NCBI RefSeq assembly: GCF_003334335.1
Contig: NZ_QOWQ01000076.1
Origin: Escherichia coli
Lineage (GTDB): Bacteria; Pseudomonadota; Gammaproteobacteria; Enterobacterales; Enterobacteriaceae
Direction: 5' to 3' (one strand)
DNA: 5,578 bases
A program made the translations under genes and the position numbers. A model generated the notes under the pieces. It was given only the letters and a program-made list of their open reading frames with translations. It did no database searches and had not been told where the DNA came from. Below, one piece after another: positions 844 through 5,578 of the stretch. Position 1 is the stretch's first letter; every line of letters starts with the position of its first letter.

Positions 844-1752
844 ATGCGGATGAATATGTCTGACTTTGCCACTTTCTTTGCCGTGGCCCGTAATCAAAGC
901 TTTCGTGCAGCGGGCGATGAGTTAGGCTTATCCTCGTCCGCCATTAGCCATAGTATTAAAACACTGGAACAACGTCTTAAAATTCGCTTATTCAATCGGA
1001 CAACCCGAAGCGTATCGTTAACGGAAGCGGGTTCTAATCTCTATGAACGATTGCGCCCAGCTTTCGACGAAATTCAGATCATGTTAGATGAGATGAATGA
1101 TTTTCGTCTGACACCGACAGGAACGCTCAAAATCAATGCCGCCCGGGTAGCTGCACGTATATTTTAAATGTCTTTACTGGTTGGTTTCACACGTGAATAT
1201 CCTGATATTAAAGTCGAGCTCACAACTGACGACTCTCTTGTCGATATCGTCCAACAGGGCTTTGACGCTGGCGTTCGACTTAGTTGCATCGTCGAAAAAG
1301 ATATGATCAGCGTGGCGATCGGCCCGCCAGTGAAATTATGTGTAGCAGCAACGCCAGAGTACTTTGCAAGATATGGCAAACCCCGCCATCCTCATGATCT
1401 GCTTAATCATCAATGTGTTGTTTTTCGTTATCCCAGCGGCAAACCTTTCCACTGGCAATTTGCAAAGGAGCTGGAAATTGCTGTCGCAGGAAATATCATT
1501 CTGGATGATGTTGATGCTGAACTGGAGGCCGTTTTGATGGGTGCTGGTATCGGGTATCTGCTCTATGAACAGATCAAGGAGTACCTTGATACTGGTCGTT
1601 TAGAATGTGTACTGGAAGACTGGAGCACAGAGCGTCCAGGCTTCCAGATCTATTATCCAAACCGCCAGTATATGTCCTGCGGCTTGCGCGCATTTCTCGA
1701 TTATGTAAAAACGGGTCAGATCTGCCAGAGTCAGCGTCACCGACCACAATAA
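844..1752 (+). pseudogene. ycaN: LysR-family transcriptional regulator interrupted by in-frame TAA at 1165-1167 (N-terminal HTH fragment 844-1167, effector-domain fragment 1168-1752)
   Basis: One reading frame from ATG 844 to TAA 1750-1752 spans 303 codons; codon 108 is TAA (1165-1167) and is followed immediately by ATG 1168 in the same frame. The 107-aa fragment carries a typical LysR winged-helix HTH (FRAAGDELGLSSSAISHSIKTLEQRLKIRLFNRTTR). The 194-aa fragment begins in the LysR linker/substrate-binding region (LLVGFTREYPDIKVEL). 107+1+194 = 302 codons, the size I recall for intact E. coli YcaN, so this is a point nonsense change rather than a frameshift. Confidence 0.75.
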
Positions 1753-3392: not shown

Positions 3393-4541
3393 TTACACGT
3401 GAGCAACGGGTTTCGGCGTATGACCGGCGTTGCGCAGCAGCATCAGCAAATAGATAAACGATACGCTGGCGATCATGATAAACAATAAATTATCGGAGAA
3501 ATTCTGCATTAGCATAGCGGTAAATGACGGGCCAAGCAGACTTCCCACAGTATAGCTCAACAGTAAGGCCTGGTTCATCGCCACCAGTTGATGATGTTCA
3601 ACTTTCTCGCAAGCCCATGCCATCGCCACCGGATATAGCGTAAAGCCAGCGGCACCGAGGATGAATAACGCTGGGGCCATCGCCGCCTGGCTAAGCATCG
3701 CGATACTGCCGAGAATGACGACAAAGACCTGAACACGCAACACCAGCAGTCGACCAAACTTATCCGCCAGACGTCCAATCGGCCATTGTCCAAGGATACC
3801 CGCACTGACCAGTACCGCCATCCAGAAACCAATGCTGGCATTGCTCACCCCTTTGTGATTGAGGTACAGCGGCATCAGGCCATATAGAGATCCCAGAACG
3901 ATTCCTGAGATAATGCAGCCATTCACGCCAAGCCGCGCCTGACGGAGTTTTAGCATTGACGTAATTGACGTCGAATCATGGTTTTCAGCCTGCTGATTCA
4001 GCACACGCGTAAACAACAGCGGTAAGATCCCTGCCAACGTCAAACCTGTAACCCACGGCAATACGGACATCAGCTCGGTTGAAACTTTGCTGACCAGTAA
4101 CTGGCCTAAAAACGTTCCCACGTAATAAACCATCATATACGCAGCAAGCAAACGCCCACGGTTACGTGACGTCCCACTGCACATCAGCGCGCTCTCAACA
4201 ACCACCCAAATCATGGCACAGCCGACGCCCGCGACAAAACGCCAAGCCAACCAGCTCCAGAATCCAATCATCAGGCCAAGGCCGGCACAGCCAGCGGCAA
4301 AAATGAAGGAGGCCAGATAATAGCTGCGGTTAAAGCCAATGCGCTTAATGACATACCCTGTCAGCAATGTACCGACAAGGTTGCCGGTAAAATAGGATGA
4401 GCTGACAACGCCTACCTGCCATGTGGACATGTGTTCCTGGGCGAGCCAAAGCGGCACGAGTGTATTTAACACCGCAATCGCCAGAGTCAACAAAAGCAGG
4501 CCAGACAGCAAAAGCATGACAGGCTGGGTATACGTGGACAT
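3393..4541 (-). CDS. ycaD: Major facilitator superfamily transporter, 382 aa
   Basis: ORF of 382 codons, ATG 4541-4539, TAA 3395-3393. Contains the MFS signature motif A between predicted TM2 and TM3 ([13 protein letters not shown]) and about 12 hydrophobic segments. Length and sequence match my recollection of E. coli YcaD. The Shine-Dalgarno is weak: no GGAGG-like element in the 15 nt before the ATG. Confidence 0.9.
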
Positions 4542-4854
4542 GAATTAAAACCGTGAGGAAGTTCAAATTTCATGCGCATCATGCCACCGCCAAAAACATT
4601 GTCAATGGGTGAAAATACGCGATATCCCAGCGGCGGTATTATCGATTAATATTACTCATTCATAACGCTAATGCTGAAGAGATGATTAGTCTCATCTGAT
4701 TGTTTTTATTGAACTAACACAAATTTCATACGCTTCGTTCAGTCGAAAAATTTCATGGTCACAGCAAACTCATATTTCCCGTCTATGCTTTCAGAGCAAT
4801 GCATCGCGTCTGATCGATTTCAGACGTACCACTGACTCTCGAAAGGAGAAGAGG
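4542..4854. promoter_or_regulatory. 313-bp divergent ycaD/ycaC control region
   Basis: AT-rich non-coding spacer between divergent start codons. TTGTCAA at 4599-4605 gives a perfect -35 TTGACA on the - strand (complement of 4600-4605) for ycaD, with a weak -10 CATGAT 16 nt downstream. AAATTTCAT occurs three times (4565-4573, 4721-4729, 4748-4756). Strong AGGAG RBS 5-9 nt before ycaC ATG 4855. No convincing ycaC -10/-35 pair was found by eye. Confidence 0.35.
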
Positions 4855-5481
4855 ATGACCAAACCGTATGTTCGTCTTGATAAAAATGATGCTGCCGTTT
4901 TGCTTGTTGATCACCAGGCTGGTTTACTTTCCCTTGTACGGGATATCGAACCCGATAAGTTTAAAAATAACGTGCTGGCGCTGGGTGACCTGGCTAAGTA
5001 TTTCAACTTACCAACTATTCTTACCACCAGTTTTGAAACCGGTCCTAACGGCCCATTAGTTCCAGAACTGAAAGCACAATTCCCCGATACACCTTACATT
5101 GCTCGCCCGGGAAATATTAACGCCTGGGATAACGAAGATTTTGTAAAAGCTGTCAAAGCGACAGGTAAAAAACAGTTAATTATTGCCGGTGTGGTAACCG
5201 AAGTTTGCGTGGCATTCCCGGCGCTTTCAGCCATTGAAGAAGGGTTTGACGTCTTTGTCGTGACTGACGCGTCAGGGACCTTTAATGAAATTACCCGGCA
5301 TTCGGCATGGGATCGCTTGTCGCAAGCTGGTGCGCAATTGATGACATGGTTCGGCGTGGCGTGCGAGCTGCATCGCGACTGGCGTAATGATATTGAAGGA
5401 CTGGCGACGTTGTTCTCTAACCACATTCCTGATTATCGTAATTTGATGACCAGTTATGACACGTTAACGAAGCAGAAATAA
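4855..5481 (+). CDS. ycaC: Isochorismatase-family (cysteine hydrolase) protein, 208 aa
   Basis: ORF of 208 codons with AGGAG Shine-Dalgarno, ATG 4855, TAA 5479-5481. Carries the isochorismatase-family signature: LLVDHQ with the catalytic Asp at residue 19, and a Cys in VVTEVCVAFPA consistent with the catalytic Cys of the Asp-Lys-Cys triad. Length and sequence match my recollection of E. coli YcaC. Confidence 0.9.
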   Translation: MTKPYVRLDKNDAAVLLVDHQAGLLSLVRDIEPDKFKNNVLALGDLAKYFNLPTILTTSFETGPNGPLVPELKAQFPDTPYIARPGNINAWDNEDFVKAVKATGKKQLIIAGVVTEVCVAFPALSAIEEGFDVFVVTDASGTFNEITRHSAWDRLSQAGAQLMTWFGVACELHRDWRNDIEGLATLFSNHIPDYRNLMTSYDTLTKQK

Positions 5482-5515
5482 AAGAGAACCGGGGCCGAAA
5501 CCCATAAGCGCTAAC

Positions 5516-5578
5516 TTAAGGGTTGAACCATCTGAAGAATGCGACGCCTCGGTGCCTCGTTAAGACGATGCCTCGCGT
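5516..5578 (-). CDS. Possible 3' end of a convergent gene, truncated by the window edge (dmsC expected by synteny)
   Basis: The last 60 nt are GC-rich and open on the - strand up to the window edge in two frames: one ends ...TRGIVLTRHRGVAFFRWFNP with stop at 5518-5516, the other ends with stop at 5513-5511. I cannot tell from sequence which frame, if either, is real, and I could not match it to a remembered protein C-terminus. Confidence 0.25.
   Translation of the reverse strand, partial: TRGIVLTRHRGVAFFRWFNP

Follow-up and report, generated by a model that had tools for sequence, protein, structure and literature searches.

The window, that is, the whole stretch of 5,578 bp of Escherichia coli DNA that was analysed, covers the ycaK–ycaN–ycaM–ycaD / ycaC region. 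According to a K-12-derived record, ycaD encodes an MFS transporter on the minus strand and ycaC an isochorismatase-family hydrolase on the plus strand. The two genes diverge from a spacer of 313 bp at 4542-4854, as the preliminary description of this DNA had given it, with the start of ycaD at 4541 (-) and that of ycaC at 4855 (+). The GC content of the spacer is 40% vs. 47% for the window, and the 601 bases around the spacer are found with at least 97.5% identity in 5425 of 5426 complete E. coli genomes. The gene of this orphan MFS transporter is conserved beside the anaerobic dms/pfl genes.

A total of 80 orthologous ycaD loci, one per GTDB species, were compared, and a conservation profile was computed from 61 non-redundant Enterobacteriaceae ycaD loci (<90% identity). 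ycaC is the divergent neighbour of ycaD in only 18 of the 80 loci; the ycaC-bearing loci belong to Escherichia, some Citrobacter, Salmonella arizonae and diarizonae, Intestinirhabdus, and Entomohabitans. The commonest gene order is dmsB-dmsC > ycaD > pflA(-), which is evidently the ancestral one. Comparison of gene order also marks ycaC, ycaM, ycaN, and ycaK as lineage-specific.

Attention had been drawn to the spacer by a repeated 9-mer. AAATTTCAT is present as exact copies at 4565-4573, 4721-4729, and 4748-4756, all on the plus strand; the rest of the window has none. The distance of 27 bp between copies 2 and 3 (about 2.6 helical turns) was confirmed. The word CATATTTCC, previously listed as a relative, does lie at 4771-4779 on the plus strand; the relationship itself was not upheld, only ATTTC being common to it and the 9-mer. 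A fourth ATTTCA, related to the 9-mer, is located at 4817-4822. Copies 1 and 3 have the 10-mer AAATTTCATG in common. When the 313 bp were shuffled with dinucleotides preserved, any 9-mer appeared at least three times on one strand in 20 of 20,000 shuffles (P about 0.001). Nominally, the triple 9-mer is therefore unusual for one region, and a few such cases are expected among the thousands of intergenic regions genome-wide. In 468 kb of enterobacterial DNA, AAATTTCAT occurs 79 times, with 76 occurrences at orthologous positions and 3 elsewhere; the latter number, against 2.2 expected from composition, implies that the 9-mer is not a common word. The 30-mers around copies 1, 2, and 3 are exact in 5415, 5290, and 5346 of 5426 E. 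coli genomes, respectively. Such near-fixation of all copies within the species is expected at 1-2% divergence and thus says little about selection.

Published maps of 5' ends place the transcription start site (TSS) of ycaD at 4571 and that of ycaC at 4796. In Table S1 of Kim 2012 (PMC3415461), the ycaD TSS is given as 945064(+) with a 30-nt UTR, and the upstream 51-mer ...TTGACAATGTTTTTGGCGGTGGCATGATGCGCATG sets +1 at 4571 (-). From this table, an NC_000913.2 coordinate equals 949635 minus the window position. The ycaC TSS is given as 944839(-) with a 59-nt UTR and 89 reads, and the upstream 51-mer AAAAATTTCATGG...GCTTTCAGAG sets +1 at G4796. The positions of both start sites are identical in Cho 2014 (PMC3923258), with 94 reads for ycaD and 3923 reads for ycaC. 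The same work reports sigma70 and sigmaS ChIP signal at both promoters and assigns ycaD as 'DS'. The features on the ycaD side are:

4542..4571, minus strand: ycaD 5' leader, 30 nt, from the mapped TSS; conserved in 80/80 loci
4548-4561, minus strand: F1, the near-invariant CTTCCTCACGGTT in the ycaD leader, +11..+24
4565..4573, plus strand: 9-mer copy 1, at -2..+7 of the ycaD promoter; the ycaD strand reads ATGAAATTT, with transcription starting from the G at 4571
4578..4605, minus strand: ycaD core promoter found by consensus scan, with -35 TTGACA at 4605-4600, a 16-bp spacer, TG at 4586-4585, and -10 CATGAT at 4583-4578

The ycaD promoter is a strong sigma70 extended -10 promoter, conserved family-wide. 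The -35 hexamer, the TGn, the -10 hexamer, and the mapped TSS of this class are all present, and the core promoter is near-invariant in the 61 non-redundant loci, in agreement with the mapped TSS. Promoter and leader together are almost invariant in 80/80 loci and follow the pattern GATTGACwwTG...GTGGCATGATGCGC..GAAATyTGAACTTCCTCACGGTT. A canonical Shine-Dalgarno sequence is absent from the 30-nt leader. A sigma54 reading of TGGCATGATGCGC in this promoter was also considered and rejected by eye, the GG-to-GC spacing being wrong.

Copy 1 of the 9-mer lies on the transcription start of this promoter. Its position reads ATGAAATTT in 20 of the 80 loci and mostly ACGAAATCT or TCGAAATCT in the others; outside the E. 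coli/Citrobacter/Salmonella clade, ACGAAATCT or TCGAATTCT is found. The same place had been proposed as the beginning of a leader peptide. The minus-strand open reading frame from the ATG at 4573-4571 does exist, with 28 codons by hand translation, and ORF calling begins the frame at an upstream in-frame ATG at 4582, which makes it 31 aa long (4487..4582, minus strand). Transcription of ycaD, however, begins at the mapped TSS with the G of this ATG, so that the first two bases of the codon are not transcribed and the codon is missing from the ycaD mRNA. Moreover, the triplet is ATG in 20 of the 80 loci. The leader peptide was accordingly abandoned.

The features on the ycaC side are:

4771..4779, plus strand: CATATTTCC, in the ycaC promoter spacer at -25..-17; no 9-mer copy
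4782..4796, plus strand: ycaC core promoter, with TCTATGCTT at 4782-4790, TATGCT at 4784-4789, C at -13 (4783), and the TSS at G4796
4806..4827, plus strand: ycaC leader stem-loop at +11..+32, GCGUCUGA-UCGAUU-UCAGACGU, with an 8-bp stem
4843-4848 and 4855-4857, plus strand: ycaC Shine-Dalgarno AAGGAG and start ATG

The ycaC promoter is of the sigmaS type, as indicated by its C(-13), its mapped TSS, its sigmaS ChIP signal, and its RpoS dependence, which is 653-fold in EDL933. The -35 region ACAGCA (4761-4766) is poor, and the -10 is conserved among ycaC-bearing genomes. Curated regulators of ycaC are RpoS/Crl, BaeR(+), and Fnr(-); Nac and YcaN are predicted regulators at these promoters. The TTTCC of CATATTTCC is kept among ycaC-bearing genomes, and a low-information Nac-like ATA-N9-TAT at 4772-4786 overlaps this word. 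The stem-loop of the leader has an MFE of -12.2 kcal/mol (z = -3.9). Across 12 ycaC-bearing genomes, 89.6% of cells are paired and 4 of the 8 pairs have compensatory changes on both sides; slid versions of the stem collapse, and 0-12 of 500 shuffles reach the observed values. The fourth ATTTCA lies in this stem-loop and is thus accounted for by the hairpin.

A small RNA had likewise been suggested for the spacer; it is not supported. Two published data sets covering four growth conditions contain no TSS between the two promoters (4572-4795). An Rfam scan of the whole window gave no match at E <= 1 in the spacer, and RNAalifold on 61 sequences gave -1.06 kcal/mol, with neither a consensus structure nor covariation. 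A conserved terminator is absent as well.

Upstream of the ycaD core promoter, the conservation profile of the 61 loci contains further blocks. Five were recognized in all, F1 to F5, F2 being the core promoter (4565-4607). The remaining features are:

4642..4662, unstranded: F3, tCGATT...T.AT (ycaD-sense GrATnAg...AATCG), about -72 to -91 from the ycaD TSS; from conservation profile and alignment
4694..4710, unstranded: F4, AT....TTGTTTTTATT, about -123 to -139 from the ycaD TSS; from conservation profile and alignment
4721..4729, plus strand: 9-mer copy 2; relative to the promoters, -75..-67 for ycaC and about -150..-158 for ycaD
4739..4757, unstranded: F5, TCAGTyGAAAAATTTCATG, with the palindromic core yGAAAWWTTTCA at 4744-4755; it contains 9-mer copy 3 (4748-4756)

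F3 is found with or without ycaC in the locus. Next to the T-run of F4 lies an inverted repeat, AGATGA-N6-TCATCT (4680-4697 in E. coli), which is lineage-specific; as a plus-strand terminator together with the T-run it was rejected as a general feature, the mean z among 61 orthologs being -0.07, with only 23% below -1. Downstream of F4, the ycaC-less genera Klebsiella and Enterobacter carry a -10-like hexamer, CATAAT/GATAAT.

Copy 2 lies outside these blocks. Its conservation per column, 0.2-0.7 in the 61 loci, does not rise above background. Already in E. albertii and in cryptic clades of Escherichia the site reads CAAACTTCAT, TAACGTTCAT, TAATCTTCTC, or CAATCTTCAT, with F4 and F5 intact alongside, and the copy is missing from other genera too; it is near-fixed only within E. 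coli. The allele CAAACTTCAT, seen in one GTDB representative, occurs in 0 of 5426 complete E. coli genomes. Copy 2 is best explained as a recent E. coli-specific sequence without detectable constraint, whose identity to the other copies would be due to chance. The context of copy 2 is identical to that of copy 1 at 15 of 17 positions. This match and the shuffling result of P about 0.001 count against a chance origin of copy 2; the match is nevertheless attributed to chance, with a small probability kept on a functional link.

Copy 3, on the other hand, belongs to the most distal block. Counted from the TSS, the centre of F5 lies at about -178.5 for ycaD and -46.5 for ycaC. On the ycaC side the block spans -57..-39 and copy 3 lies at -48..-40. 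In about 55 of 79 loci, genomes without ycaC included, the exact 9-mer is present at an offset of 205-210 nt from the ATG of ycaD, and where ycaC is lacking F5 directly adjoins the dmsC terminator hairpin. Among the 61 sequences, 15 of the 19 columns of F5 are at 0.8 or more, vs. 0.2-0.5 in the neighbouring columns, and copy 3 itself is at 0.8-0.9+. This profile reflects stronger purifying selection on F5 than on its flanks. The dyad yGAAAWWTTTCA is palindromic at 10 of 12 positions in E. coli, and the palindrome is perfect over 12 bp in the variant TGAAATATTTCA. Only the central W positions carry substitutions, dyad symmetry is preserved across taxa, and the variants GAAATATTTC, GAAAAAATTC, and GAAATAATTC all keep GAA-N4-TTC. 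Most likely, F5 is bound by a dimeric regulator, or else by an architectural protein, that acts on ycaD, a role that is putative and judged here from conservation and symmetry. Given its position at -57..-39, it may serve ycaC as a putative UP element or activator site. For a simple activator or repressor of a sigma70 promoter, about 180 bp upstream is an unusually distant position.

The preliminary description had read the three copies as a repeated motif for a regulator or nucleoid protein. One copy, the third, does stand in a conserved block; the three-copy motif does not hold, copy 2 being background and copy 1 the ycaD start. Conservation in orthologous loci was found family-wide for copy 3, only in Escherichia/Citrobacter/Salmonella for the 9-mer at copy 1, and not at all for copy 2 in sister Escherichia. 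Phylogeny thus shows separate histories for the three copies, and three different origins are proposed for them.

Candidate binders were sought with a consensus scan of 20 IUPAC motifs. The motifs were those of BaeR, FNR, CRP, Fis, IHF, Nac, H-NS, ArcA, PhoP, CpxR, RcsB, GadE, GadX, NarL, Lrp, Fur, OmpR, and MarA, together with the sigmaS -10 and the UP element. The comparison with E. coli transcription factors that had been recommended yielded, against these IUPAC consensuses, two marginal matches only. Fis over copy 1 matches at 11 of 13 positions, with 14 of 300 shuffles as good, and H-NS over F5 (TCGAAAAATT) at 9 of 10, with 10 of 300 shuffles as good; a second H-NS match of 8/10 lies in F3. 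Lrp over F5 reaches 12/15, and this match, like those of H-NS and the UP element to F5, is weak or non-significant. The A/T consensus of the UP element (-59..-38) is matched at F5 at 10/14, which is attained by 267 of 300 shuffles, and an A5T3 tract lies at -50..-43 of ycaC. In the literature searched, no ChIP or SELEX peak in the spacer was found, and a search on the sequence of the F5 palindrome returned nothing relevant. Deletion of ycaN lowers the expression of ycaC and raises that of ycaD. As a binder of the spacer, YcaN was nevertheless rejected: ChIP-exo gives six weak sites, none in the spacer, and several of them are hot spots common to other factors. A ChIP-exo peak that has been assigned to ycaC is in fact that of YcjW and lies outside the spacer.

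Taken together, these observations are read as two mapped back-to-back promoters, in which the three 9-mers represent the ycaD start, a chance copy, and an ancient palindromic block; a probability of about 0.72 is given to this reading. The spacer had been called much longer than needed for two promoters. Its 313 bp are, on the contrary, filled by mapped and conserved parts of the control regions of both genes: the 30-nt ycaD leader, about 190 bp of ancient, footprinted ycaD promoter and upstream sequence, the ycaC core promoter, and the 59-nt ycaC leader. The spacer is an ancient ycaD region of about 215 bp (leader, promoter, F3, F4, and F5) joined to a ycaC cassette of about 98 bp, which consists of the core promoter from about -38 and the 59-nt leader, and this junction explains its length.

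The proposed mechanism is as follows. Copy 1 covers the start site of the ycaD promoter TTGACA-16-TGgCATGAT and the bases transcribed first (-2..+7), with +1 at 4571. Copy 3 is the core of F5, which all over the Enterobacteriaceae has kept its place about 180 bp upstream of where ycaD transcription starts, with F3 and F4 at conserved spacing. A putative dimeric or architectural protein on F5 would act on ycaD from about -179. In the Escherichia/Citrobacter/Salmonella lineage, ycaC with its RpoS-type promoter lies directly beside F5, and the block consequently occupies -57..-39 of the ycaC promoter. There, with the -35 being poor, an activator or the alpha C-terminal domain may contact the F5 zone. 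Copy 2 would be a recent, E. coli-specific, chance identity.

The alternative that survives best, although it is considered unlikely, regards F5 as an A/T-tract architectural element, either an UP element of ycaC or a nucleation or bending site for H-NS, Fis, or Lrp, with F4 and F3 as phased A/T tracts that curve the DNA. The A5T3 tract at -50..-43 of the ycaC promoter, the H-NS matches in F5 and F3, and the low GC content of the spacer relative to the window are consistent with it, and successive A/T tracts are separated by about 43 bp (F5 to F4) and 53 bp (F4 to F3), which corresponds to roughly 4 and 5 turns of the helix. However, bases other than A/T are conserved in F5 (TCAGT, the G and C of GAA..TTC, and the final ATG) and W-to-W swaps occur only centrally, which implies a sequence-specific dyad pattern rather than a generic A-tract. 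The UP consensus match is equalled by most shuffles, and F5 is kept even where no ycaC promoter adjoins it.

Considerably less probable is a single regulator that recognizes the decamer AAATTTCATG at copies 1 and 3, as well as at copy 2 in the case of E. coli. It would couple the two divergent genes, as a repressor of ycaD at its start site and, from about -45, an activator of ycaC, with looping as a possible means and YcaN as a candidate. The attraction of this reading lies in the opposite changes of ycaC and ycaD in the ycaN deletion, in the conservation of copies 1 and 3, both with AAATTTCATG, within Escherichia, Citrobacter, and Salmonella, and in their placement, +1 of ycaD being suited to repression and about -45 of ycaC to activation. 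The copies are nevertheless inconsistently placed relative to the promoters (-2..+7 of ycaD; -75..-67 and -48..-40 of ycaC), and copies 1 and 3 are 183 bp apart centre-to-centre, about 17.4 helical turns and hence off phase. Across loci the two positions vary independently: that of copy 1 changes among ATG/ACG/TCG and AAATTT/AAATCT/AATTCT, and outside the clade to the words given above, while F5 stays ATGAAATTTTTC. Copy 1 and F5 thus do not co-vary. As for YcaN, its ChIP-exo sites avoid the spacer, its gene was inserted only in certain lineages, in contrast to the family-wide F5, and the window's own strain has a nonsense codon in ycaN and has nonetheless kept all three copies.

A similarly low probability is given to the possibility that F5, F3, and F4 form a distal operator array for ycaD, acting from about 180 bp upstream, for example by looping to the start-site region, which the later sigmaS promoter of ycaC would have co-opted, with copy 2 under selection and the 9-mers functionally linked. 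A small RNA encoded in the spacer is very improbable, and so is a leader peptide or other small peptide: the 28-codon frame from 4573 and a mini-ORF in F5 (ATG AAA TTT TTC GAC TGA; in ycaD sense ATGAAATTTTTCnACTGA, five codons, with ATG and TGA conserved in most genera) both exist, but neither ATG has a Shine-Dalgarno upstream, the length of the mini-ORF differs in several genera where TGT, CGA, or ATC replaces the stop frame, and the start-site, Rfam, covariation, and terminator results for the spacer and the cut ATG of the longer frame stand as described.

The region is an ordinary and largely characterised divergent promoter region. Both promoters, their start sites, and the main regulators have been published before, and the three repeats do not form a functional unit. 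The one lead is F5, conserved and operator-like. The upstream architecture of ycaD is unusually extended, with three blocks and a near-invariant leader at fixed spacing, and the block farthest upstream is a palindrome resembling an operator. Naming the factor of F5 would give a first handle on the timing of expression of ycaD and, in E. coli, of the strongly RpoS-dependent ycaC. The ycaC/ycaD spacer is in use as a 'neutral' chromosomal integration site, and conserved elements are present inside it.

Both promoters and the ycaC leader can be compared with known systems. The extended -10 of RpoS-dependent promoters is reportedly of the KCTAYRCTT type (Weber et al. 2005). The ycaC promoter resembles this class in TCTATGCTT with its C(-13), the poor -35, the TSS 7 nt downstream, the sigmaS ChIP signal, and the RpoS dependence. 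Nothing about it is unusual among RpoS-dependent promoters, save the older element from upstream of ycaD that it has inherited at -57..-39. Stabilising or regulatory stem-loops of the ompA type are found in the 5' UTRs of enterobacterial mRNAs. The ycaC leader is alike in its 8-bp stem at +11..+32 with compensatory changes, but the stem begins 10 nt from the 5' end, whereas those of the ompA type are at the end, and it has no Rfam match.

Palindromic operators include the IclR/AllR-type sites, TGGAAA..TTTCCA, and those of the CRP/FNR family, which have the layout TTGA-N6-TCAA. F5 is similar to them in having a dyad, yGAAA-WW-TTTCA. It differs from the consensuses compared in half-site sequence and spacing, with an FNR match of 6-7/10 by eye, and, unlike those operators, it sits about 180 bp from the ycaD start. 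Finally, the ycaD promoter is like other sigma70 extended -10 (TGn) promoters in its perfect TTGACA, 16-bp spacer, TGg, CATGAT, and TSS at the expected distance. In contrast to them, it conserves more than the core needs, namely the first 25 transcribed bases and three blocks that extend to about -186.

In the four orthologous loci of the Citrobacter freundii complex (L010, L014, L022 and L024), the palindromic spacer block F5 is kept adjoining ycaC, and the promoter-proximal sequence of ycaC differs. The ycaC leader of these loci carries about 70 additional bases, and the spacer measures 382-385 bp. In C. youngae (L018), the promoter-like sequence of the complex has been kept, but without a match to ycaC, which suggests that the gene was lost there. 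Among loci L002-L079, the YcaC proteins present share 93-99% identity with YcaC of E. coli, also in genera in which YcaD reaches only 81-92%. The corresponding values for Entomohabitans are 93% for YcaC versus 81% for YcaD. The comparison points to ycaC being under very strong constraint or having spread horizontally.

The leaders of the two divergent genes contain the following elements:

4548-4561, minus strand: pyrimidine-rich stretch of the ycaD leader, CUUCCUCACGGUU, at +11 to +24 of the ycaD mRNA
4806-4827: stem-loop in the 5' leader of ycaC, supported by compensatory substitutions among sequences from Escherichia, Citrobacter and Intestinirhabdus

The CUUCCUCACGGUU stretch is almost invariant among the 80 Enterobacteriaceae compared, unlike the bases adjoining the ycaD ATG, which vary. 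No recognisable Shine-Dalgarno sequence is present in the ycaD leader, and no stable fold was predicted for it (-2.1 kcal/mol, z = +1.05). The conserved stretch might be a translational element, an element bound by an sRNA or a protein, or a DNA operator. The ycaC stem-loop matches no Rfam entry.

Control of both ycaC and ycaD by the LysR-type regulator YcaN has been proposed in the literature. The gene for this regulator is also found in the window:

844-1752, plus strand: ycaN, LysR-type regulator, with a premature stop at 1165-1167

Codon 108 of ycaN is TAA in the window versus Leu in the K-12-derived record, and the gene is thereby split into ORFs of 107 and 194 amino acids. A 30-mer spanning the stop has matches in only 34 of the 5426 complete E. 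coli genomes.

Both ends of the window depart from the K-12 sequence:

1-76: left end, with no match to the 3' end of K-12 pflA, matching instead the terminus of IS1414, an IS256-like element
5504-5578: right end, departing from K-12 at a breakpoint within the ycaC terminator hairpin, directly after GGGGCCGAAACCC

The sequence beyond the terminator breakpoint is the end of an IS4-like IS421 (IS186-type) element, which is multi-copy and is inserted here between ycaC and dmsC. This junction is common to 634 complete genomes; the junction of IS1414 adjoining ycaK was found in none of the complete E. coli genomes in the collection searched.

The spacer is itself interrupted in other strains. One natural isolate (record NZ_CP144926.1, H1) carries IS1A between ycaD and ycaC. 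In Hwa-lab strains, a Ptet-tetR cassette stands in place of -221 to -114 relative to the ycaD ATG (window 4655-4762), eliminating copies 2 and 3 of the repeated 9-mer together with the conserved blocks F4 and F5. The spacer is handled as disposable in practice.

Two further sites of the spacer differ among relatives:

4680-4697: perfect inverted repeat of E. coli, AGATGA-N6-TCATCT, directly beside the conserved TTGTTTTTATT block
4709-4722: variable site, reading TTGAACTAACACAA in the window, at about -80 from the ycaC transcription start

The inverted repeat is not family-wide, and the Klebsiella/Raoultella/Yokenella group has a different one, GGAATnATT...AATTATTCC, in the same place. The exact 30-mer at 4711-4740, covering the variable site, occurs in 2279 of the 5426 E. 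coli genomes; when the 30-mer is moved off this site, the count is 5290. The remaining Escherichia representatives read TTGATC there (TTGATCTAAC...), which creates a GATC and is closer to an FNR half-site than the sequence of the window.
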